Below, in pieces: positions 18,861 through 63,764 of a stretch of DNA of 64,000 nt (positions are counted from its first letter, which is position 1; each line of letters opens with the position of its first letter). The DNA comes from Camelus ferus (Eukaryota): NCBI RefSeq assembly GCF_009834535.1, contig NC_045696.1, forward strand, positions 57,972,001 to 58,036,000. Direction: 5' to 3'. The notes beneath the pieces were generated by a model. The model was not told the origin of the DNA. It did no database searches and saw only the letters and a program-made list of their open reading frames with translations. The translations under genes and the position numbers were made by a program.

Positions 18861-25036
<6,176 letters not shown>

Positions 25037-31075: not shown

Positions 31076-31099
31076 TTTTCATAGAAAAGAAAGCAGAAG
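31076..31099 (+). promoter_or_regulatory. Decayed GAS-ISRE cassette paralogous to the PARP14 promoter
   Basis: ttttcatagaaaagaaagcagaag aligns without gaps to ttttccaagaaacgaaagcgaaag at 63491-63514. Confidence 0.6.
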
Positions 31100-31148
31100 A
31101 AGATCAAGGTATTTCTGCTGCGGGGCACCAGCCCAGCAGTGAGGGTAG

Positions 31149-31331
31149 ATGAACAGGGCTGAGGAGGTCAGCTGGGCTAAGCGTCCTGGGGGGCTAGGGC
31201 CCTGGCCCGCGAACTGACCTCCAAGTTGCACTTCCAGAGGCCGAAGAGACGGGAGGTGGAGACCCAGACTTCCACCAGGAGCCGAGGAGCCAGCTCTTCC
31301 AGGCTTTCTTCCTGGTTCCTGGGGGAGGAAG
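31149..31331 (+). pseudogene. PARP15: PARP15-locus exon 1, degenerate paralog of PARP14 exon 1, in a CpG-rich patch
   Basis: ccaagttgca------cttccagaggccgaagagacgggaggtgg matches PARP14 ccaagttgcagatgtacttccagagcccaaggagatccggaggcgg; same donor G|gtgagggg; TGA at 31215 in the frame of ATG 31149. Confidence 0.8.
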
Positions 31332-31599
31332 GTGAGGGGCGCCAGAGGAGCAAGGAGGAGGGAGCGACTGGCGGCCCCGCTAGGCGTCCTGCGCACGCGC
31401 GATGCTCTGCCGCGCAGGGCGGCGCGGAGACCCCGGTCCGCGGAAGCTGCCTTCTGGGGAGCGCTGACCACCGCGCTCACCACCGTGACTTGTCCCGGGA
31501 GAGCAGAGTGTGAGGGTTCTCCTCCACAGGACGTTTCATCTCCTTCCCCTCAAATTTTAAACGTTCCTTATACGGTAGGGATAAAAATCCTTTAAATCC

Positions 31600-34500
31600 T
31601 TTAGTGTGATATATCCTGTGAATTTTTCCTCTCATTTTGTCATTTGTCTTATGAGTTTGCTTACTGTGGCTTTTTTTTTTTTTTTTTTTTTTTTACCGTG
31701 CAAACGTTTTTGTATTGTTATGTAGTAAAATTTACCAGTCTCTCATTTTATTGCATCTGGACTTTAAGTCATCTTTTAAAAGCTTTCCCCTATACCCAGG
31801 TTATAGTTATGCATGCTTTTTTTCTTTTTCCTATTTGTAATGCTTTATTTTTTACATGTAGACCTCCGATCCATTTGAACTTTACCCCTGTGTATGGTTT
31901 GAGAAATAGATCTAATTTTATCTTTTTTTCTGTATGGGTATCCACATTTTAATCTCCGTTAATGCTTCAATCCGAACATCATTTATGAAGCTTATCACTA
32001 TGTCAGTAAGATGAGTTACCACCTTTATTTATCATATACTAGATTTTTAGATGTAGTTTGGTTATTCTGAAACTTCTGTTCCGTTGGCTGCTCCATTGAC
32101 CTATTTGTTCATCTGTTTTAGAGAGGCTTTGTAGCATATGTTAAAGTCAGGACTAGTCCCCTACAGAGCTCTTCCATATCAATGTTTTCCGCTTTATTCT
32201 TGCGTGCTTATCTTTCTTTATGAACTTTAGGGTAGACTTCTGATTTATGATCAATGTCCAAAAAAAAAAAAAAAAAACTGGTTGGGATTTTTATTGGAAT
32301 TGCACTAAACTAATAAATTAAATTACAGAGAGCTGACATCTTGAGATGGTGTTGAGATATTCTCACCAAGAAGAAGGATGCCATTTCATTTGTTCAAGTT
32401 TACTTTTATGTCTTTAAAGAGTGTTTATAGTTTTTTACGTAGAACATTTATTGTTAAGTTTGTTTTCTATATATTTCCTCTTCTTTTCTTGCTATTGTAA
32501 ATGAGCTTTTCTCATATTTTTTCTTCATTATATCTTTTAGCTAATTACTTGTGTACATGAATGCTATTGACTTTTCCTTTCATTAGAAAAATAAGGTACA
32601 ATTTACATACAGCAGATTCATACTTTTAGTATATAGTTCTGTGAGTTTTGAGACATGTATATAATTGTAACAACCACAAAGTATAAAAGATATAAAAGAG
32701 TTGCATCACTGCCCGAAATTCCCACCAATCCCTTTGTAATCATCCCTTTCACTCAGGGTGAGCCCCTGGCAAACACTGGTGAGATTTTGGTCTCTATAGT
32801 TGCAGTAATATAAGTGGAATCATATAGCACATAGTCATTTGAGCCTTGCTCCTTTCACTTAGCGTAATACTGTTGAGATCCGTCCATGTAGGTGCAGCTG
32901 TCATTAGTTTGCTATTACTTTCTAATTTAATTTCATAGTGATTTGAGAACATACTTTGGGCTATTTGAATCCTTTTAAATTTACATTTTGAGATGTGTTT
33001 TCTGGACAGGATTTGGTCCATCTTGGTAAATTCACACACACACACTTTAAAACAGTGTATTCTGTTATCATTGGTTGAAGTCTTCTGTTTCAGTTAGATC
33101 AACTTGGTTAATTCTGTTGTTCGAGTCCTTATATCCTCACTGGTTTTATGTCTAGTTCTATCAATTATTGGGAAAGGCTGCTGAACTCTCCAACTGTAAT
33201 TGTGGATTTATTTCTCCTTAGGGGTCTATCAATTTTGGCTTCATATAATTTGAAGCTCTCTTTAGGGGCATAAATGTTTAGGATTGTTATTCTCCCTTGA
33301 TGAATCTTTTCATTTATCATGATAAAATGACAGTTTCATCTCTGATAATACCTGCACTGGAATATACCAGCTTTCTTTTTCTTTTTCTTTTATATTTTTA
33401 AAAATTGTGATAAAATACACATAAAATTGACCATTTTAACCATTTTAAAGTGTGTAGTTCATTAGTGTTCAGGGTATTCACATTGTTGTGCAGCCAATCT
33501 CCAGAACTTTTCATCTTGCTAAACAAACACTGTTTTTTGTGACTGGCTTATTTCACTTAGCTTAATGTCTTCAAGGTTCATCCATGCTGCAGCATGTGTC
33601 AGAATTTCCTTCCTTTTCAAGGCTGAATAATCTTCCATTGTACATATATACCAATCACTCCATTTATTGTTATTTTTTGCAGAAATTTTCAAGTTTGATG
33701 TCCAGTCCCACTTGTCTATTCTTGTTTTTGTTACCTGTGCTTTTGGTGTCGTAACCAATGAATAACTGACAAATTCAATGCCATGAAGCTTTCCCCTTTT
33801 GCTCCATCTATATGTCTGTTATCTGTATGTCTGTTTTCATGCCAGTACCATATTGTTTTGATTACTGCAGCTTTGTAGTATGTTTTGAAGCCAGGAAGTG
33901 TAAGGCCTCCAGCTTTGTTTGTTTTTCTTTATCAAGATTGTTTTGGATATTTGATTATTAAAAGTGATTGTAAAAATAAGGAAAGCATTATTTTATATTT
34001 ATTCACATATTCACCATTTTCATCTGGCATTATTTCCCTTCTTGAAGAACTTTCTTTAACATTTCTTATAGTGCAGGTCTTCTGGTGATGAGTTTTTCAG
34101 TGTGTGTGTATGTCTGAAAAGTTTTTAATTTCACATTTTTTTTTAAACATACTGCATTTTCTAGGTTGACAGTTAAAGACATTGTTGTATAACTTCTGGC
34201 TTGCCTTGTTTCTGACAAGAAGTCTTCTATCATTTTTATCTTTGTTCTTCTATGCATAATTCTTTTCTCACTGGCTACTTTTAAGATTTTTTTCTTTATT
34301 ACTTGTTTTAAGCAACTTATGATATGCCTAGGAGTAGTTTTCTTCATCTTTATTGTGCTTGGAGTTCATTGTGAATCTTGGGTCCATGAGTTTATAGTTT
34401 TCATCAAATTTGAAAAAGATTTTGGCCATTGCTTCTGCAAGTATTTTCTTCTCTCCTCTTTTATCTATGTATATTCATCCACATGAAGTTGTCCCAGGCT

Positions 34501-36050
34501 CACTGATTCTCTACTCATTATTTTCTCAGTCTTTTTTTCCTCTGTCTTTCATTTTATGTGGTTACTGTTACTAATGTCTTAAAGTTCACTAATCTTTTCT
34601 TCTTTATCCATTCCTCTGTTGTGGGTTGCTTCTGTATCTTGGCAATTGTAAATAATGTTGCTGCGATCATTGGGGTGCATATATCTTTCACCATTCAGTG
34701 TATTTTTCACCTCAAACTTTGTATTTTTCTCTCTAGAATTTGATTTAGTTCTTCTTTATATTAAGTCTCTGCTAAATACATTCTTGTTTTCCTTTACCTT
34801 CTTAAAAGTGTGCAGTTTTTTGTTATAATAATGGTTTTAGTATCCTTATCTAGTAATTCTGTCATCTGTGTCATTTCTGGGTTAGTTTCAGTTTATTTTT
34901 CTCCACATTATGCATGATATATTGATGCTTCTTTGCAATCCTGGAGGCTGGAAATAAGAGGTCAGTGAAGTTAGCATGACTGGGTTCTTGGTGAGGGGCC
35001 TTTTCCTGCTATGCATATGACCCCTTCTTTCTATTTTCTTACATGATGGAGGGAAAGAGTGTGTGTAAGTGCTGGTCTCTTTATCATTGTATAGGGCACT
35101 AATCCCATCATGGGGGTGCTATCCTTATTATGTCATCTAAACCTAATTACCTCCCATCTGACCCCACCTCCAAATACCACCACATTGGAGATTAGGGCTT
35201 TAACATACAGATTTTTGGAGGGACACAAACATTTTGTCTATAGCATATGCATACAAGTTTTTTGTGTGGACATATGTTTCATGTCTCTCGGGTGTATACC
35301 TACCTGGGAGTGAAATTTCCGGGTCATACAGTAACTCTAACTTTTTGAGGAACTGCAAAACTGTTTTGCTAAGTAGTTGTATCATTTAATATCTCATCAG
35401 AAATGTATGAGAGTTCCAATTTTTTCACATCCTGAACGACACTTATTATTGCCTTTTTAAGTTCAGTTATCCTAGTAGGTGTGAAGTGGCATCTCACTGT
35501 GGTTTTGACTTGTGTTTTCTTAGTGACTAATGATGTTGAGCAACTTTTTAATTTTTTTGGTCCTTATTGGCCACATGTTTATCTTCTTTGGTGAAATGTC
35601 TGTTTAATTCTTTGTCTATTTTTAAATTGTATTATTTGGTTTTTTTATTGTTGAGTTGTAAAAGGTCTTTATATATTCTAGATACAAGCCCCTTATCAGC
35701 TATATGACTGGCAAATATCTTCTCCCATTCTGTGGGTTGTCTTTTTACTTTCTTGATGTTATTACTGATTTTTAAATTTTCAAAGATGTGGCTGTGTTAT
35801 TTGTAAAGAATGACTGCTTGGGGCTTTTCTTTTCAATATTTATTCTCATTTCTTTTCCCCACCTTATTGTGATGACCAGGAAGAGTTTTGAAAAATATAC
35901 TGAGTAGAAGTAGTGACAGAACACATTTCTGATTTTTTTTTTAATTTTATTTTTTACTACTTCTAAGGAGAGTGACTGTTACATTTCTTCACTGTGAATG
36001 TTGACTTCTGAGTTCAGAATAAGCCTCTTTATCATGCTAAGGGAAAAGTC
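31600..36050 (-). mobile_element. Composite antisense LINE-1 fragments in the first intron of the PARP15 locus
   Basis: T-rich; minus-strand ORFs with L1 ORF1/ORF2-like peptides ([41 protein letters not shown]). Confidence 0.8.
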
Positions 36051-36539
36051 CTTTTATTTCTCTTTAACAGGTTAAACAATTAAAAATGGAAGTTAGAGTT
36101 TCTATTGTCCCCATAAATGTCTACCCATATTCAATCTTCTTTGTGAAGATGCAGAATTTTTTGTATTTTGGTTATATTTTTGGATTGCTCTTTCATTATG
36201 CAGTAACAGAAACATTTCTTCTCAGTAATGAGTTGTAGCCCAATTATTTTCGGTCAGTGGATGAGCACCACCATTTACTATCATGTTTATTTTTTTCCCT
36301 GTGATTTGGTGAGTAAATCTGACTTTACAAAGTATTATGTTTAACTTCACATTATCATTGAACCAAAGAGTTATTGTTTTCTTTCTTTAAAAAAAAAAAG
36401 CAGTAAGTAAAATCTATTTTCTTTCAAAGTATTAAACATCTGAAAGTAATATAAAGGCCAAAGGCTTTCAATTCTCAAATCAGATATAAAAATTACTATC
36501 TTGAGTGTTTCTGTCTCCTTAAAAATTGCTAAGTTGGAA

Positions 36540-36801
36540 ATCCTCAGTACAGAAGTAATAGTTTTCAGAAGAGTGGATAAAATGAATGAAATGGAAGTGG
36601 TTGAAACAGATGAATTTTCAAAAGACTCTTCACAAGCCTCCCTTTTGGTTGCATTTCACAATATCCAAGACACCATGGCTGAGGGTGTGCTATCCTTGTT
36701 TGTGGAGTCGATTAGTGGCCTGTCAGACATCAGCGGTGACTTCAGGGTGGAAGTAACATCCAGTATTAAAGTTGCTTTAGTCTCCTTTCTCAAAAATATT
36801 G
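36540..36801 (+). pseudogene. PARP14-like RRM exon remnant (SLLVAFHNIQDTMAEGVLSLFVESISGLS...DFRVEV...VALVSFLKNI); 5' boundary uncertain
   Basis: Resembles human PARP14 [38 protein letters not shown]...VAVVTFQKHI; intact donor G|gtagga. Confidence 0.8.
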
Positions 36802-36884
36802 GTAGGACAAATTACATTTTAAAATCTGTTTTCTTCTGATATGAAATGAAATTACAGTGCTATTAAACTGATTTTTATTTGCAG

Positions 36885-36960
36885 ATGTCAGAACATTTGT
36901 TAATGTTTGTAATGGATACCATAAAGTTGGGAAACCAGATTTTCCCAAGGCATCTGTAAC
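36885..36960 (+). pseudogene. PARP14-like next-exon 5' remnant (DVRTFVNVCNGYHKV / QIFPRHL*), truncated
   Basis: Acceptor ttttatttgcag after an 83-nt intron, phase matches; resembles PARP14 DTIRFVDDCTKHHSI...QLSPRLL with a frameshift. Confidence 0.65.
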
Positions 36961-38117
36961 CAGGTGGTAGGAACTTGGGAAATTTAATGAACCATTTTAA
37001 AGGCAGTCACAATCTCCTGAAAGATTTATGCCACAAAGAAGTTTATACTTTTGGATGGTACAACCATATAAAGAACATTTTTAAAGATCATACTTCACCT
37101 GCACATCACCTCCAATTGTGATCCTTAGGAATTGGTAGTGAAGCCAAAAGGTTTCCCTGAAACTATAGGTATGGATGGAAGACTGGAAGGGAAAGTGGAT
37201 GAGCTCAGTCAGAGAGAAGCAGACATTAGGATCTTCCTAACATAGCTTCAGTGGAAACTAGTCAGGCAGGAGAGCCAAACATTGAAAGGCTATCTAGAAA
37301 GAAAAGGAGCTTAACTTTCAGTAGTGATTTAAGAAGCTAATAGTCTTAGCATTAGATTGAAATAATATCTGATTCTTAATATAGCAATGAATTGGTATTA
37401 CTGCAAATTTTTAACTGGTACTCGGTGAGAACACGAACATTTAGGATTGGTTTCCCTCACTTTGCAGACTTCTACATTTAAAACTGCATGATTCTTAGGA
37501 CCAATACCAACCTCCCAATCTTGAAGAATTTGAAGGCCCATCTCTCTCCCATACTTGTCACCTTAAAGCTCTTGACATCTGGAGAACTTCTTTCAAAAGC
37601 CATTTACCATGGTTATATTCTGGTAAATGGTTAATATTTAAGCACATTCAGTGCTTCTGAAGATAACATGTGCACTTGAGTCTCAGTCTGCTCTCCATCC
37701 ATTAGTGAATAAACAGACCAATAGCAGAGGCTGAGTCATATAGAGTGCAGTGCAGCACTTTATAAACCTTTTTTTAACCACAGTGCACCATAAAAAAATG
37801 TTTATATTATACTCCAACCCATACTTTATTATGAAGACACAAGTATTTGTTGCAACTTGGAAAATAAAGTTTTGTTGCAACATGTGCATTTCTTGCTAAG
37901 GAACTGATGCACTCAATTTTCTATTCTACTCTAATATGTATATATACTTAAAATTTTTTGTTAAAACCCTTAAAATTCCTATCACTGGCATCGGGGTTAG
38001 AGGTTGGCTTTCAGCAGTGACTTAGCCACAGAGGGTTACGAGGCTGGGGGTTTTAGCCTTATTCCCACAATCTCCACCAGCCTTCTTCTTCAAGCCATCC
38101 TAAACAAGCATACAATC

Positions 38118-38605
38118 CATATTAGTTTTCCATTGCTACATGCCAGATAACCCCAAAACTAGTGACTTTACGTGACAAACATTTATTATTTCACATTTTA
38201 TTTGGGTCAGGATTTGGGAGCAGCTTAGCTGGGTGATTCTGGCTCAAGATCTCTCATACGGTTGCTATCAAGCTGTTAGCTGGGGCTGCAGTCATCTGAA
38301 GCTTAGCAGGGACTGGAGAGTCTGCTTCTAAGCTCACTCACATGGCTGCTGCCAGAGGCCTCTGTTCCTTGCTATGAGGGCCTCTCTAAAGGACTGTTCA
38401 TGACATGCCAGCTGGCATCCTGCAGAGAGACTTTTGGGGGTTGGGGAAAGAGCTGCAGTGCCTTCTGTAACCCAGCCTCAGAAGTGACAGAGCATGACAT
38501 CTGCCATATTCTGTTGGTCACAAAGACCAATCCTGATATGGCATGCAAGGAGACTATGCAAAGGTGTGATTGCTAGCAGTTAGGGATCATTTGGTGCCAT
38601 CTTAC
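38118..38605. mobile_element. MaLR (MLT-type) LTR
   Basis: tattagttttccattgct...ggctgcagtcatctgaagc. Confidence 0.6.
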
Positions 38606-40352
38606 TCACACAATCCAGGAAAACGTAGTTTCAAGACAAACTCCCTTCATCACCCCCTACTTCTAGCCAGGCTGTCACCCCTCAGCCTTCTATATAGAAA
38701 TTCTAGAGCATGACTGGCCTTTAGAGTTTCAAAGGTATATATTTAAATTTTCCTAGAATTTACTAGTTGGATAGCAATGGCAAAGTTACTTTCTGATTCT
38801 GTTTCCTCATTTAAAAAGTAGAGATAAAATCTATCTCACAGGGTCATTATGAAGATTAAATTAAATGGGATAATATTTGTAAAATATCTGACACATAACA
38901 GGTATTCATTAAATAAAGCTATTACAATTACCAACAAGAGAAATGGGAAACACAAGTTACTAATTTGTTGAGAAATGATAGATATGAATTTTGTTTTAGG
39001 TAGCTACACGTGTCAGCAGATACAGGGATAAAGAGCCATTATTAAACAGGGCTTAAATGGTTCAGTGGCCTCCATTTTGATATTGTTACCACCTCTGACA
39101 TAAGAGTACTATGATATACTGTTTCTACTGGGTAAAATGCATTTGAAAATAGGCAGGTGAATTCAATTAAGAAAAATATGCACTCTCCCTCTCTCCCACC
39201 CCCAGAAAAGCGAAATGGTTTCCTTAGAAGTAAAATCAGAGCATCTTCTGTTTGCCTGAGAACTCACTGTCTCCCAAGTTGACCCATTTCACCTTAGGAC
39301 AGTTCTTATTATTTAAAAAATTAGCGTTATTTCCCCCCCCCCCCTTTAATACAGCGACATCATTGTTGATTTATACTGAATTTACTGTCAACCAAAATCC
39401 CTTAGGTATTTTTCATGACTTAGCCACTACGCCACATTCTCTTTCTCCTAAACTTGTGCAGTTATTCTTTGGACTTCCCTTAGTTTTCTTCCTTTCCTTT
39501 GGTGCCTCTTCCAGATGCCCTGGATTCTCTTTTACTTATTAGGTACACTCAGAATCCAACTGCTGCATGTATTGCTGTGAAGAACTCACACTTAAAACCT
39601 TCTCCAGAGGATTGCCTTTGGGACACTGGAGGTGCCTGGGGATTTACATCCATCTCCCAACTAGAATGGCCCATAGCCAATAACTGACTGGTTTGGAGGT
39701 ATAAGAACCCAGCTCCCTTGCCTCAAGGTTAAGACAACACTGTGATCCAATCTGTATACTCTAGAGATCTCGGTGGGATCAGGCAGAAGCCAGGCTTAAT
39801 CTAAACCATATTCTCTCTCTTAAGCTCTCACTTCCTACAGATTTCTCCTAAGGGCACAACTTTAATAAATCACTTGCACATAGATCCCCATTTTGGGCTC
39901 TGCTCCTAGGCAATCTAACCTTTTATGACTTTTGGTTATAAGCAAACAATTGTTTTTAATGTTTTTTACTATTTTAACTATCCTTTTAAAAAATGATATT
40001 GGCTTTACTTCTAGTAGGTTATTTTGAACTTCTCATGCATTATTATTTGTATTTATTGAATCCTAAGGGCCAGATTTTTTTCAGAAAAAAATCACCTCTA
40101 ATATTGTACTATCGATGGGAAAATCAAATTAATTTTATAAAACTTTACTGTAAAATAAACAAGACTGGAATAGATCTATTTCATTAGGTGAGGATTAGCC
40201 CCATTGCATTCATGAATGTCACATCTTTCATCGAGCAGCTTGCCAGTGGTACCATTTTTAGGTAGACACTCTATTTCAGTCTCATTAGTATCAGGATTTC
40301 TTTTGTGCCAAAGATTTTTTTCTGAATGATATCTTTTATTTTTTATTTTTAG

Positions 40353-41420
40353 TAGTGGACACTTAATTGGCCAAAACACTTATCTTCAATGAAAGGCTCG
40401 TCTTTGTGTTCCCATATTATGTGTTATTTCTTGGGCGTAGCTTCCTATGGAAAAGGAGAAGCCCCTGGGAAGGCTGCCGGCCCCATTCCTGGTGCTCCTG
40501 GATCCTCTCATGTGGAAGATCTTGCAGAGAAAGCCTCACCTGATTGGAGTGATAAATTATAAAAGGAGAAAGTGTCACGGTGAGGTAACATGGCCCCACA
40601 TCAGCTGTAAGGAGCTGGCGGTAATCAGGTCTGCAACTACCTAACTTATTTAAGGAAGAACAAAGGTCAATGTCATCAAGGCCTAGAAAGATGTTTCTAA
40701 AAAATTCTCCTACATCATGTCTAAATATCATGTCACTGAATTGAATGTGAGGCCAGTGGTATGGGAGGACATAAAAAGCAGTGTAGAAGATGCTAGAGTT
40801 TTGATTGAGTCTGAAATGTTCAAGGAGATGGTCATAATCATAGGTTGTTTGGAAGATGTGAGAAGAATTGTAACAGTTAAAGACACCAACCAAAACATTG
40901 AAAAGGAAAAACACAAGTTGACAGAATGTGGCTGGTTCTTCTGAAGGTTTTCTAGTTTTTCCATCAGTGCTTTGTAAGAGTCTGTGTTCAAGGAATTCTT
41001 GGGCTGGGAGGTTGTTGATAATGCTTTCAGCAAACATACCAGGCTGCTCGCAGGAGAGTATAAAGTGAAGGATGAAGTTCCTTAGCGAGTGAGAAGGATT
41101 GTTCAAGAAGCCCATCCCCAGTCCTTCTGGAGTTTTCTGTTTGTTACAGAAAGTAGAGTGAAAAATTCTCTGAGATGGCTTTAAGCAAAGAGAATTCATA
41201 TACTTTTTGAGTTAGATCAGGCATGGAAAATCTGTTTCATTTCATAGGTTACCTTTGATCAAATGATGGTTGTCTGGAACTCCTTGTTGAGAAGAATTCT
41301 GAGATGATATCTGGGATGATGGAAAAAGAGTACTGACACCAGGTAATGTCTGTCACAGGTGTGGGCGGGCAAGGTGTGTGGAGGTGACATGTGCCATGTT
41401 ATTACTGGTTGTAAGTGTGA
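40353..41420 (+). pseudogene. Remnant of the large PARP14-like KH-region exon, with stops and frameshifts
   Basis: Acceptor ttttttattttag, then VVDT*LAKTLIFNERLVFVFPYY, EKPLGRLPAPF..LDPLMWKILQRK.HLI, SKYHV..WEDIKSSVEDARVLIE...KEMVII; resembles PARP14 VLDTIMATKLDFNKMPLSVFPYY..EKPLIKLPAPF..LDLPLWKFLQKKNHLI. Confidence 0.85.
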
Positions 41421-41609
41421 GAATACCGTCAGGTAGGTGGATTTCTCTTCCAGATCCTGTGCAGAGCAGATTCAAGTACTGTGTCCTTTGTTAGCTAGTA
41501 GTTTGACTTGGAGTAAGTGGTTTCACCCCTTCACTACACTGGTTTCCTTTACAGGAGAATGAAGTTTCTATACTGGATGATCTGTGATGACCCTTGAATT
41601 CTAAAATTC

Positions 41610-41717
41610 AAGGGGAGGGGGAGTACAGCTCAGTGGTAGTGTGCATGCTTAGCATGCACAACGTCCTGGGTTCAATCCCCAGTACCTCCATTTAAAAAAA
41701 AAGAACTCTTGCTGTTA
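41610..41717 (+). mobile_element. tRNA-Ala(AGC)-derived SINE (Vic-1-like, camelid)
   Basis: ggggagtacagctcagtggtagtgtgcatgcttagcatgcacaacgtcctgggttcaatccccagtacctcca plus A tail; 13-bp TSD aattctaaaattc at 41597-41609 and 41718-41730. Confidence 0.88.
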
Positions 41718-42377
41718 AATTCTAAAATTCTATGACTGATTGATAGTCAAACCACAAATGCATTATTGTGGAGGACTGAGGACTGTGTCTTAGTTTGGGT
41801 CTCCCAGAAAAAGACCTGAAAATAGGATTCAATTGCAAGTGATTTTAGTGGGGAACTAAACAACATTGGTAGAGGATGTTAGCAAATCAGTTACCACTTA
41901 ATCCCACTAGGGAAACTCAGAGTGAGTCCTCTCTGGGGGGCAAGGTTGCTGCGATAGTTTTACACCAACTCTAGTCAATCATTGGATAAGGGCTTGAGGG
42001 AGTGGGAGGGCACCTTAATTTACCTGCACTTTCTCTCCATGTCAAGCAAAGCCGACTTTGGCACTCCAGTAAATCCTGAGACTAGCAATACAGTTGGAAA
42101 TATGACCAAGGTGCGCTTTAATGGTTAAGAGCCAGGGGATACTGACAGAGTCTGTTAGCCTAGGATTTTTGGAATAAGTACAAGAGCTCACTGGCATTTG
42201 AGGTATTAAATACAACTGATACTCAAAAATCGTGGATAATAAATTATTTGCTTTTGAACCTTAGGCTCGAGTTAGAGAAATCTGTGAAATCTAATAGTTA
42301 TTTTCTATTTGGAAACCTATGAGGAAGGTTTTCAGATGGCGCTGCCTGGATAATGCCTCTTACTGTTTTCTTCACAG

Positions 42378-42491
42378 TCAAAAGACCAAGACAGCTGGAA
42401 AGACTGTCATTCAAACAATGTTCTAGCCTCAAGCCAAACCAAAGAAGGTCTGAACCTCGTGTTGGTAAGTGGAGATGTTTTATATTTCTTG
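42378..42491 (+). pseudogene. PARP15: PARP15 exon-2 homolog, open with intact splice sites (SKDQDSWKDCHSNNVLASSQTKEGLNLVLVSGDVLYFL)
   Basis: Hand translation resembles human PARP15 SRDNKFSKKDCLSIRNVVASIQTKEGLNLKLISGDVLYIW; acceptor ttcttcacag, donor TTG|gtaagt, phase 0-0. Confidence 0.88.
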
Positions 42492-43364
42492 GTAAGTGGT
42501 GCTGTTTAGTAAATTCTCCACAGAACAGTGGTGTGTAATGCATTGGTTCTGTGATTTAAGGTCAAGGATTGAGATCATATAAATCTGAGAAGTTAAACCC
42601 ACCAGAAGTTCATGCTGGGCTATACTTACCATCCCCTATAATGTCCATATGTGGAGAGACCCGAATTTAACCACAAACGAGGCTGTGCAAATCCACCTTT
42701 TATTTCTCTATAACTTACCTTGACTTACTCTCAACCCAGTTCTGTTTTTCTCTTCTGTTCCTCAGCATTAAAGGGGAAGACAATATGTTCATCACATAAT
42801 ATCACCCTTCACAAATGCACCCCGTCGCTCCGGCCTGAGCACTCTCGGGGACACAGGCAGAATGAGGAGGGAGAAAGGTTACTAGTACAGGTACTAAATG
42901 CTCAGTTTGGCTCTTGCCTGCCCTTCCCCTCTACTGGCTTCCTCTTCCTGGGAATCACCAGTTAGCAGAAGATGCAGACCCTCATATTCCAGTTAGTGGA
43001 CATCCATGACACTCAATCCCGGCTGCACATCAGCATCACCTGGGGAGCTTTATAAATACAGGTGCCAGGCCCCACCCCTGAAGAGCGTGATTTTAATTGG
43101 TCAGGTATCTGGTCTCAGTGTCAGTAGTTTTGGAAGACATTCCTGGTGATTCAAATATGCGGCTAGGCCTAGGTATGTTAATTAAATCAAAACAGTTACT
43201 CTCAGTTCCTGCCTGCCTGAAAGTAATTCTCTCTCTCCTTCAGTCTCTCCCCACCTGTGTTTGTCTCAGTCTCTCTATTGTTCTGTCTCCACCTCTGCCT
43301 TTCACTTTCACTTTCCTTATTTTTCTGTCTCTGTTTCTGGCCTCTGTTTCACTCATTTTCAAGT

Positions 43365-44010
43365 CCTATGAGCCTGCCCTGACTTCAAATGCCAGTCATA
43401 AGTCCCAGGAGCCTCCGCATCTGACCAACTGGCTTTAAAGTCCGGGGTTCCCACACCCCACTTCTCAGGTTTGGCACTTCACTAGAACAACTCACAGAAC
43501 TCAGAAAAACACTTTTCTTACATTTACCAGCTTATTATAAAGGATACAACCCAAGAACAGCCAAATGGAAGAGATGCTTAGGGCAAGGTGTGTGGGGAGG
43601 GGCACGGAGCTTCGGTGTCCTCTCTGGGCACACCACCCTCCCAGTACCTCGATCTCTTTACCAACCTGGAAGATCTTGAACCCCTTTATTTAGGGTTTTT
43701 TAATGGAGGTTTCATTATGTAGGCATGACTAATTAAATAATTAGATTTGTGACTGAGTTCAATCTCTAGCCTCTCTTCTCTCCCCGGAGGTCAGGGAGTG
43801 ACCTCCCCTGAGAGTTCCAATTGCTAACTGTGGCTGGGTCTTTCTGGAGACCGGCCTCTATTCTGAAGCCATCTAGCCCCACAGCCCCCAAGAGTTATCT
43901 CATTAGCATATAAAAGACAGTCTTTTATGGAGATTCCAAGGGTTTTAGGAACTCTGAGCCAGAAACCAGGGACAAGGACCAAATATTTATTTTTTATTAT
44001 ATCACAGTGG
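43365..44010. mobile_element. MER21-like ERV LTR (related copies at about 27390-27890 and, inverted, about 50070-50360)
   Basis: Shared sequence blocks among the three copies. Confidence 0.6.
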
Positions 44011-45155
44011 GAAACCTCTAAGAGTGATGGATCATAAACTATTTATCCTTTAAAACCAGGACTCATGCCTTGCCAGGTAGACAGTCAGCCATGAGAGTGA
44101 TTTGAAAATGTCATAGTTTCCCACATTTGACCATACATTCCCATAACTCACCTGCTATCACGCCTGAAATTCTCACCTTAATAGCTCTCCTCTGATTAAG
44201 ACATTTTCTCTGGAGTGAATAAATTCCTGGCAAGAAATCAGAGGCAGGTAATATTGATCACCAGCATGAGGATGTTAAAGGGATTAGTGCACCGGAAGAG
44301 CTGTCTGTACCTAGAAGACAGAAGCCTAAAATGAAGTTAGGCTGGAGAAGCTGGAAAAGCCCAAGGAGGCTGCCTGGGAGGGGAGGGGAGGTGGGACACC
44401 AGAGGGGCAGGGAGTGCCTGGGTGACAGAGCTTACCAGGAGGGCAGGGTGGTGGCAGACAGGGACCCACTCTCCTCCTCCATTTTGCTGGAACCCTGCCT
44501 TACTTAGGGTATGAAAGGGCAATGCCTTAAAACAAGCCCTGTAATTTCCAAGTGCTCAAGAGCTTTCAAGGTCCTGAGAAATTTTCATCCTTTCACATCT
44601 CCACACATCTGAGAATACATTGCTTTTACCTCCCTGAAAAATTAATCTGGTTGAATGAACATATATGTAAATTGCTATTCTGGACAGTAGAATGGGGGTT
44701 CAGAGATCTGGACACTGACTGCTTGGGTTCAAATCTTGGGCAAATCTTGGGTGATCTTAGTCTACTGACCTTGATTTCTCCGTGCCTCTCTTTAATCTGT
44801 GAAATGGATAAACCAGCACCTCATAGGCTTGTAAATCAGGTCGGGGGAGGGATTAAGAGTTAAGCTCACAAGCTTGTTTTGAGAACTGAGTAGATAAACC
44901 CAGCTTTTAAACAGCATCCAAAACACTCAACAATGTAGTTGTTGAGTTAAAGAATCCTGATTGTAAAAAAAAAAAAAAAAAAAGAGCCTGTCACAGTCCC
45001 AGTGAATGAAACCAGCTAGACTGAGGGAGCTGGACTTGGCAGGAATCCACAGCTTTTTCTGATGTCAGTTATTTTCATTTCTCAGTAATCAGATGGTCAC
45101 TTCCGGTAAGTAATGTGCTGTGTGTGTTTCGTTTTCTTCCTTTTTTTTTCCCCAG

Positions 45156-45323
45156 CTGCACAGCCTCACAGAGATTATATAATTACACAAGGTGGATACT
45201 TAATGTACAAGATAATAACTCATGTTCTTGGGGAAAATGATGTCATGAAAATGGTTTCCATTGTTCTAAAAGAGTGTAAACAGCGGAAGTACACATCTGT
45301 TTCCCTTCCAGCCATTGGAACAG
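45156..45323 (+). pseudogene. PARP15: PARP15 macrodomain exon (AAQPHRDYIITQGG...KYTSVSLPAIGT), donor mutated
   Basis: Resembles human PARP15 AAQPHRDFIITPGG...EQRKYTSVSLPAIGTG; strong acceptor; exon ends CAG|atttgt instead of GT. Confidence 0.9.
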
Positions 45324-46829
45324 ATTTGTAGCCTCCTGACACTCAGAGATTCTGAATAACCCAGACTCCTTTAGACTTAGTCTCACTAAGCATTGTTAAT
45401 GAACTCAATGCTGAGTCCAGGCAGCAACCTGTAAAGCAGAGAGTGGGCAACCTTTTAGACCCTGAGGGCCGGCAATGGGACCAATGCCTCTTTTATCCAT
45501 CTTTCCTCTTTATTTTGTGTTCCTTAAGTTCTTTCATATTTGGCCCCTTAACTTCATGGTTTTCTCACTCTTCATCTTTTCCCTTTGGGGGAGTCGTTTG
45601 CTCTTACTATCTCAGTTACTATTTCTGCCCTGACTCCCGAATCAGCATTTCTAGCCGCCTCCAGGTTCTCTTTGAGGGACTTCTCTGTTACCATAAACTT
45701 CATATCAGGATCCAAACTTGTCATCATCTCTTGCAAATAGCCACCCCTCTTGACTTGTCTCATTTCCTACTTTCCTCCTCCTGTGGTGCCACGATGCTTC
45801 CAGCTGTCCTGCCACCCTTGCTTCTTTGTGCCCCCAGACACCCTACCTCTACCGCTAGTCAGCAAATCCTACTAAATCTTATCCCACGGGATTTTCAGTT
45901 TCAGCCTTCCTTTTAGTTTCCAAACCCTTAATCCCTCCCCCATCTGATTTACTGCAGTGTCTCCCACTGGCTCCTCATTCATGCGTTCATTGAATAGCAT
46001 TCAACTGAAATGCTATTACCCTAGGGGATACAATCACGAGTAGGAGACAGTCACTCTCCTGTAGCTCAGGTTCATCCTGCTCAATTTCTGGGAACACTGT
46101 CCTCATCACCTCTATCATATCACCTAATAATTTGCTCTTAGTTGAAGATGATGCTAATGACCACTCCTGATTCATTCGCATCCAATTGCATAGGCTTTTT
46201 AAAAGGCCCCGAGAGGTACCCTAATGCTTTCACATGGTTTTATGATTTAGTAGCACCTCAAAAGTAAGATATTTTAAGCACCACGGGTTAAGACCACTCT
46301 TTTCTTCCCACTTTGACTTCTCAGACCTCTCAAACTTCCCTTGGGTGTTGGAGTGGTCATAAGCATTTTGGGAATACAGCCAAGGAAAGGTGTATATGGG
46401 AATATTGGGAATAGGATTTTCAACATTTTGAAATGTATACTTTGTTATGATTTCATTTCTGATTCTAAATACTCACTTTTATACGTAAGTGTATGTTTGT
46501 AATTTTGTATTCTTTTTCTGAGGTGTATAAATTTCAAAACCTGTGAAACTTGGACTCACCTCGACTGTTAGTTTCCCCATTTTGCAAATAAGAACTTGAA
46601 GTATTAAAGCACCAGGTCATACAGCTAGTAAGCAACATATGTGGCTTCAGACCCAGGCAGCCTGGCCTGTACGTTCCAGCCATTACATTTTTTCACATTA
46701 TGTGTGTTTTTTTTTTAACCGTTATGCCCTTAATTACTATATTCTTAGCTACCACATTCTTATCTCTATTATCTATTACCTTCTATTATCACCCCAATTT
46801 TATAGCTGAGTAAACCGAAATTTAGAGGT

Positions 46830-63452: not shown

Positions 63453-63514
63453 TTCCGGGGAAGCCATAGGCAAGAAACGTTGGGCGGGAGTTTTCCAAGA
63501 AACGAAAGCGAAAG
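63453..63514 (+). promoter_or_regulatory. PARP14 proximal promoter: TTC-N4-GAA (63453-63462), GC box, kB-like GGGAGTTTTCC, GAS TTCCAAGAA (63493-63501) overlapping ISRE GAAACGAAAGCGAAAG (63499-63514)
   Basis: Motifs read directly, 64-125 nt upstream of the ATG, at the edge of a CpG island. Confidence 0.75.
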
Positions 63515-63577
63515 AGACTTAACCTCTGGGAGTTTGGGGTGGGACCAGCAGTCTCAGCTGGACTAGCTGAGGTGAGG

Positions 63578-63764
63578 ATGGCTGCGTCCTGCTCCTTCCC
63601 GCTGCTGGTTGAAGGGTCCTGGGGCCCCAACCCCCCGAAGAACTTGAGCACCAAGTTGCAGATGTACTTCCAGAGCCCAAGGAGATCCGGAGGCGGGGAG
63701 TGTGAGGTCCGCCAGGAGCCGGGGAGCCCGACCCGCTTCCTCGTGCTCTTCGACTCCAACGACG
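63578..63764 (+). CDS. PARP14: PARP14 (BAL2/ARTD8/CoaSt6) exon 1; gene continues beyond the window
   Basis: [62 protein letters not shown] resembles human [44 protein letters not shown]; donor G|gtgagg; CpG island. Confidence 0.96.

Follow-up and report, generated by a model that had tools for sequence, protein, structure and literature searches.

Did PARP15 originate as a partial copy of PARP14, or was the whole gene copied and later cut down? Passages in PMC4038475, PMC10221186, PMC12572374 and PMC13224862 describe PARP15 as a partial duplication comprising macrodomain 2, macrodomain 3 and the PARP domain, and a passage in PMC10450202 presents it as lacking putative RNA-binding domains. We addressed the question in a 64-kb window of the Camelus ferus genome (NC_045696.1, positions 57,972,001 to 58,036,000; coordinates below count from its first letter), to which about 70 kb of downstream sequence was added to cover the PARP14 locus. 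An original prediction, made from the letters alone, had read positions 31076-45323 as the fossil of a full-length PARP14 duplicate. Our analysis strongly favors an origin of PARP15 as a whole-gene tandem duplicate of PARP14, because PARP14 homologues are collinear across the interval, both halves of the copy appear equally old, orthologous pieces occur in other mammals, and the acceptor region of PARP15 exon 2 aligns to exon-6 coding sequence of PARP14.

Comparison of window positions 25-62 kb with the camel's own PARP14 locus by blastn returned 43 rows, four of which fall on PARP14 exons, all on the plus strand and collinear: 31171-31362 (65% identity, E 5e-11), 36639-36807 (63%, E 1e-10), 40334-41216 (62%, E 7e-67) and 45143-45335 (77%, E 2e-36). 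The remaining 39 are short or have many partners in both orientations and were taken as dispersed repeats. Smith-Waterman alignment of 22 PARP14 segments against 25-62.8 kb, with 12 shuffles each, placed six of them well above the shuffles (z 9.6-107); these were exons 1, 4 and 12, two stretches of exon 6 and the 88 nucleotides (nt) with which exon 5 begins. DNA identity to PARP14 across aligned segments was 57-75%. Pfam profiles identified RRM_PARP14_2 at 36498-36800 (E 1.8e-13, 50.9 bits; cut-off 27), KH_PARP14_1 at 40453-40590 (E 2.7e-6, 28.0 bits; cut-off 21) and KH_PARP14_2 at 40687-40941 (E 1.2e-10, 41.5 bits; cut-off 27). Significant collinear matches are thus present, and the order, strand and identity of the parts proposed for 31076-45323 are borne out, with some limits corrected.

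At the 5′ end, the exon 1 homologue (31149-31331, plus strand, as are all features of the copy), which contains the start of RRM1, carries indels but retains its GT donor; it ends in AAG, at the place of the primate PARP15 methionine ahead of exon 2. The exon 4 homologue (36508-36801), encoding RRM2, ends in phase 1 before an intact GT, and a frameshift-aware alignment crosses 36603-36800 (66 codons) with no stops and no frameshifts. This RRM exon had been placed at about 36540-36801; its 3′ end and its RRM identity hold, while the 5′ limit and the acceptor are uncertain, the AG homologous to that of PARP14 being altered and 12 candidate AGs lying nearby. The predicted 83-nt intron (36802-36884) and the start of the next exon at 36885 both stand, the exon 5 remnant (36885-36974, covering roughly 88 nt from the start of its PARP14 counterpart) outscoring 500 of 500 shuffles and contributing 15 codons to the frameshift-aware alignment. 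In the camel's own PARP14 the same intron measures 2,347 nt and contains repeat copies, so that 83 nt may be the ancestral length. A wombat PARP14 model (P0164) that reads into intron 4 resembles a read-through of the fossil intron at 36802-36830.

The 5′ part of exon 6 (40353-41217) covers the end of RRM3, KH1-3 and part of KH4, and its frameshift-aware alignment (40352-41217) spans PARP14 residues 276-568 with 7 stops and 5 frameshifts. The predicted KH exon had extended to 41420; its homology is sustained to 41217, and the tail 41218-41420 (to 41440) does not rise above the null (26 of 100 shuffles match). Within this part, an internal splice donor in phase 0 (40584..40586; GAG/GT, where PARP14 has GAG/CT) coincides with the exit point from exon 6 in bear and canid PARP15 models.

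Further downstream, the 3′ tip of PARP14 exon 6 survives as the orthologue of PARP15 exon 2 (42378-42491), 65-79% identical to PARP15s. The tip scored weakly in the window-wide scan (z 2.7, on 42345-42478), and in restricted tests 0 of 200 and 0 of 100 shuffles reached its score. The 33 nt immediately upstream, which form the exon-2 acceptor region (42345-42377), align to PARP14 exon-6 coding sequence in the linker between macrodomains 1 and 2 (0/200 shuffles for DNA, 0/100 for the profile), which indicates that the copy extended further 5′ in exon 6 than modern PARP15 uses. A macrodomain exon homologous to PARP14 exon 12 follows at 45156-45323, its donor changed from GT to AT; it is 85% identical to seal PARP15 versus 63% to deer PARP14, and 53 of its 56 matches are PARP15-type proteins of 375-685 amino acids (aa). 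Both exons are closer to PARP15 than to PARP14, as predicted.

The proposed promoter cassette also finds support. The block at 31076-31101 contains overlapping motifs that we take to be a gamma-activated site (GAS) and an interferon-stimulated response element (ISRE), and it is homologous to the block at 63491 ahead of PARP14 exon 1 (block and exon together 63491-63764, plus strand). The homology was missed by the window-wide scan and emerged in a restricted alignment whose score was reached by 4 of 500 shuffles; the distance from block to exon-1 donor is 255 nt in the PARP15 copy versus 273 nt in PARP14. A pattern built post hoc on both promoters has no occurrence other than those at 31078 and 63493 (0.04 expected). 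The GAS/ISRE-like composite occurs three times in 133 kb, twice at these promoters; the third instance lies at window 2281 (plus strand), within a PARP9-like gene.

The interval is a decayed camelid PARP15 locus. It sits between a DTX3L-like gene and PARP14, on the same strand as PARP14, and within 24.4-63.5 kb it holds only two PARP15 coding exons, those at 42378-42491 and 45156-45323. No PARP15 ART exon was present among 22 genome matches and a donor is lost, so there is no intact macro2-macro3-ART frame and the camelid locus is a pseudogene. Loss of PARP15 in alpaca and camel is already reported in a passage of PMC4038475.

Phylogenetic analysis places the N-terminal fossils far from camelid PARP14. 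Over 357 scored columns the fossil shares 41% identity with alpaca PARP14 and 37-42% with eight marsupial PARP14 rows, and in the tree it falls outside all 15 of the 15 placental rows (support 100/99) and outside the eight marsupial rows (100/99). Approximately unbiased (AU) tests reject its forced placement with alpaca PARP14 (p 0.0018) or with artiodactyl PARP14 (p 0.0019). Furthermore, the KH1 window measures 25-26 residues in 102 of 104 placental PARP14 rows (the other two without data), 31-37 residues in 15 of 15 marsupial rows and 27-32 in eight outgroups; the fossil has the long state with both insertions filled, that is, ancestral insertions missing from the 102 scored placental PARP14s. 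By these sequence comparisons, the fossils are not a recent camelid copy.

Orthologous pieces were recovered from other mammals in a set of 149 PARP15-type proteins, 135 of them with exon 2, that yielded 31 distinct N-terminal extensions of at least 12 residues. Nine of the 31 match the exon-4/6 fossils above the null (four bear-type, a canid group, donkey, horse, Rousettus and tarsier). Another 11, from primates and one further group, correspond to PARP14 exon 1 read in the +1 frame. The pieces are more than fossils in "intron 1", since several species' models use them as 5′ exons. In polar bear (XP_008706472.1), giant panda (XP_019658661.2) and black bear (XP_045668549.1), 42 exon-4 and 76 exon-6 residues precede exon 2, and these 118 residues are read in PARP14's frame; the brown bear model is without this start. 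Pfam pieces of RRM2, RRM3 and KH1 score 42.7, 39.1 and 23.4 bits in polar bear PARP15 (cut-offs 27, 24 and 21), with the N-terminus beginning at RRM2 profile position 16, past the first strand, and about half of KH1 present.

Splice phases in the window, including the internal donor after 40584, fit the path of the bear models. Among assembly proteins, P0318, P0401 and P0402 likewise run from exon 4 to exon 6, and P0277 and P0408 run from the end of exon 5 to exon 6, the sole attestation of the exon-5 3′ end. The window fossil, bear, panda and five assembly proteins group together (99/97), with placental PARP14 as their sister group (87/88). These trees and orthologous pieces support the proposal that ancestral PARP15 carried RRM and KH domains that were later skipped or lost.

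The branch lengths and substitution patterns suggest that the long form was once a protein. The stem branch of the fossil clade is 0.26 versus 0.20 for placental PARP14 (0.29 versus 0.20 in the macro-ART part), and pairwise nonsynonymous divergence (dN, 0.47) is below synonymous divergence (dS, 0.82). A rough split by branch lengths gives a dN/dS of about 0.7 on the fossil branch versus 0.45 for PARP14, which would fit roughly half of its history under constraint. The fossil is 67-68% identical to bear, close to the 69-71% between PARP14 orthologues in the same blocks, and no lesion common to the window, bear and further assembly rows was seen in KH1. We consider it likely on this sequence evidence that ancestral PARP15 once coded for an RRM/KH form. 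The explanation that combines a whole-gene copy before the placental radiation, a once-coding RRM/KH part and later trimming appears just as likely.

The best surviving rival holds that the whole gene was copied but its N-terminal half was non-functional from birth, with the short form in use at once and the RRM/KH exons decaying neutrally or remaining untranslated. It would account for frames that are broken differently in each lineage, for the failure to find an intact long form, and for a fossil branch of 0.82 in the tree that exceeds the approximately 0.53 of PARP14. The observed fossil-bear identity is moreover within neutral reach at short distances, attained by 44% of simulated runs at a distance of 0.2 and 10% at 0.25, but by at most 0.3% at 0.3 or more. 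A stem nearly as short as that of functional PARP14, the excess of dS over dN and the missing common KH1 lesion likewise speak against a copy that was never translated, and we regard this rival as unlikely.

A second rival, less probable still, makes the locus a mosaic: a partial duplicate (macro2, macro3 and ART) standing behind a separate, equally old copy of the PARP14 5′ half, or one that acquired exon 1 and the promoter by gene conversion. The KH5-7/macro1 middle is undetected and primate exon 1 lies unexpectedly near PARP14 exon 1, as this rival would allow. The N- and C-terminal trees also differ in their weakly supported marsupial branching (87/88 versus 88/92). However, both halves derive from the same exon 6, in order, with the KH fossil and the exon-6 tip 1,128 nt apart versus 1,228 nt in PARP14. 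Measured at four-fold sites, identity to the camel's own PARP14 hardly differs between the N-terminal fossils (0.54, n = 57) and the PARP15 exon (0.56, n = 16), and the macro-ART part of 10 PARP15s, like the N-terminal fossils, falls outside placental PARP14 (100/100; 38 of 57 rows in the tree set, 24 of these 38 in the AU test). The 5′ and 3′ halves thus share one duplication age. Relative to marsupials the macro-ART position is weakly resolved, and the N-terminal topology is acceptable under these data (AU p 0.33); the legend of Figure S6 in PMC4038475 records the same uncertain placement of PARP15. The mosaic also needs two events where one suffices.

A recent camelid duplication of the PARP14 5′ half that landed in a PARP15 remnant has only its proximity to PARP14 in its favor and is very improbable, given the modest DNA identity, introns that cannot be aligned besides repeats, the AU rejection (p about 0.002), the retained ancestral insertions, and orthologues in carnivores, equids, a bat and tarsier.

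Several observations weigh against the whole-gene origin with a once-coding N-terminus. Homologues of only 5 of the 17 PARP14 exons were detected in the window: exons 2-3 and the rest of exon 5 gave nothing above the null, and neither the KH5-7/macro1 part of exon 6 nor the KH8-WWE exon was detected. With 12 of 17 exons undetected, collinear parts support a duplication from the promoter onward, but the words "whole" and "full-length" follow from contiguity; the undetected exons belong to a locus that also lost most PARP15 exons. The constraint estimates draw on 183 partly filled columns and on the long fossil branch.

Nor did protein searches recover a species with an intact long PARP15, which the original prediction had suggested looking for: the 53 PARP15-type matches to the macrodomain exon are all short, the best 120 of 591 long matches are all PARP14-like and at most 58% identical, and the longest PARP15 in another search has 731 aa. 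Afrotherian and xenarthran PARP15 were not recovered in these searches, which miss proteins without shared words. RNA data over 36400-38150 gave eight short unspliced contigs in two of four runs and none in the other two, with no splice joints seen in that interval. The cross-species evidence consists of predicted protein models rather than genomic DNA, some of which may be homology-driven; 10 of the 31 extensions match nothing, and one more hits the minus strand. Finally, primate PARP15 exon 1 scores 101-108 against camel PARP14 exon 1 and at most 53 against the window fossil. Later gene conversion may have replaced the sequence of exon 1, or indels and decay in the camelid pseudogene may explain the difference; given this resemblance, exon 1 alone does not date the copy. 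Within the camel, exon 1 (31171-31331 against 63578-63764) is 75% identical to PARP14, versus 57-67% for exons 4-6, a possible trace of promoter-exon gene conversion.

Whether a long form persists today is a separate question. When exon 5 is skipped, RRM2 meets RRM3 at equivalent positions, and AlphaFold, run on P0402 with 50 rows, predicts one beta-alpha-beta-beta-alpha-beta domain with a predicted local distance difference test (pLDDT) score of 79-88 over residues 21-90; this model was built with PARP14 rows and is thus biased toward an RRM, and P0402 ends before the macrodomains. The top Foldseek rows listed for this model are mostly RRM entries, none at E ≤ 0.001. Between panda and polar bear, 3 of the 118 N-terminal residues are different, versus 38 of 613 others (Fisher p 0.13), which is suggestive only. 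A living RNA-binding PARP15 isoform is, on these models, conceivable though rather unlikely. We hold it similarly doubtful that PARP15 was an RRM/KH nucleic-acid-binding ART until about the placental radiation and that living mammals, bears being the best case, keep an isoform with a hybrid RRM in frame to macro2-macro3-ART. In such an isoform, the first portion of RRM2 would be fused, through exon-5 skipping, to the last portion of RRM3, yielding an RNA-targeted PARP15.

Tandem duplication of an entire gene, with later shortening by the use of cryptic splice sites, is a general mechanism, and the whole-gene origin of PARP15 can be told in its terms. PARP14 would have been copied in tandem, from promoter to ART exons, before placental mammals radiated, and the RRM and KH domains that the copy encoded would at first have been constrained much as in PARP14. 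Once an acceptor had arisen close to the 3′ end of exon 6, splicing could have bypassed KH5-7 as well as macrodomain 1, the hydrolase. Translation of the short macro2-macro3-ART protein likely came to begin at an ATG, out of the original frame, where exon 1 ends. Exons 4-6 would have decayed lineage by lineage, persisting as alternative 5′ exons in some models and in frame in three bears, and most remaining exons would have been deleted in camelids.

The camel locus resembles PARP15 (BAL3; macro-PARP) as described in its position between DTX3L and PARP14 and in the PARP15-type exons at 42378 and 45156; unlike it, the locus contains counterparts of the PARP14 promoter and of RRM and KH exons and is a pseudogene without an ART exon. 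With PARP14 (BAL2; three RRMs, a KH array, three macrodomains, WWE and ART) it shares exon order, the splice positions and phases of exons 1, 4, 5, 6 and 12, the promoter block, and the Pfam families RRM_PARP14_2, KH_PARP14_1 and KH_PARP14_2. In contrast to PARP14, its frames are broken, exon 6 is divided by a newly gained donor and acceptor, no trace of macro1, KH5-7 or WWE was detected, and ancestral insertions lost in placental PARP14 are retained. Full-length PARP14 duplicates are reported in a section of PMC4038475 for bats, guinea pig and bushbaby. Like these, PARP15 is a tandem, same-strand copy with its own promoter; it is much older, its retained product is the C-terminal third, and its 5′ exons persist as alternative first exons.

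We found no description of RRM/KH remnants at PARP15 in the open literature, including bioRxiv 10.64898/2026.04.23.720386 and the main text of PMC4038475. The latter states that sequences with stops or frameshifts were left out, which would hide such fossils. 

Several further models and sequences were considered. An owl monkey N-terminus resembling the internal donor end was not significant (45-500 of 500 shuffles) and was not counted. An extra exon of seal PARP15, considered as a KH8-WWE remnant, was rejected, 23-132 of 200 shuffles reaching its score. P0004, P0012, P0021 and P0335 contain an extra PARP15 exon of about 50 residues ahead of the ART domain, whose best alignments in the PARP14 of sloth and ass, though not significant, lie where the KH8-WWE exon begins. 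The Dromiciops PARP14-like protein P0065 (1865 aa), a candidate intact marsupial PARP15, clusters with marsupial PARP14 in all trees; it is a divergent paralogue, basal among marsupial PARP14s, that has an exon-2-like motif in common with PARP15. Galemys P0057 (2919 aa) was rejected as a fused model with a PARP15-like tail and two PARP14 copies, which suggests an extra PARP14 duplication in that species. Dating the exon-6 split by an old short interspersed nuclear element (SINE) in the gap failed, the local-copy profile having no match in 41.3-42.4 kb. The first 18 residues of the brown bear PARP15 model P0381 match the minus strand at about 41969 (44 versus a null maximum of 35), where the sequence resembles, in our view, an ancient interspersed element; 41780-42200, when searched against the genome, matched only itself and did not confirm this.

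Around the PARP15 remnant, the window contains minus-strand exons of what we take from their translation to be a PARP9-like gene, and open reading frames at 18.9-24.3 kb that we presume, on the same basis, to be DTX3L-like. The first exon of the latter (19020-19100, plus strand) matches PARP14 residues 17-44 (64%, E 0.002), in agreement with a common RRM/KH architecture noted in a passage of PMC13224862. PARP14 itself was mapped as 17 exons, with exon 1 at the window end (from 63578) and the gene running on beyond it; exons 1-6 have an open frame whose translation shares 97% identity with alpaca PARP14 across 1,024 residues. In alpaca, the PARP14 isoform P0124 carries 11 additional residues where exons 6 and 7 meet, corresponding to an upstream alternative acceptor in the camel genome (L004:1262-1294).

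Collectively, these results would revise the history of one known gene rather than reveal a new kind of system; they supply a dated ancestral RRM/KH sequence and predict species-specific N-terminal isoforms. If the whole-gene origin is true, PARP15 inherited the interferon-type promoter of PARP14 at birth and then shed its RNA-binding modules together with the ADP-ribose-erasing macrodomain 1. PARP15 would then represent specialization by domain loss, a writer-reader without an eraser, in a family under virus-driven selection.

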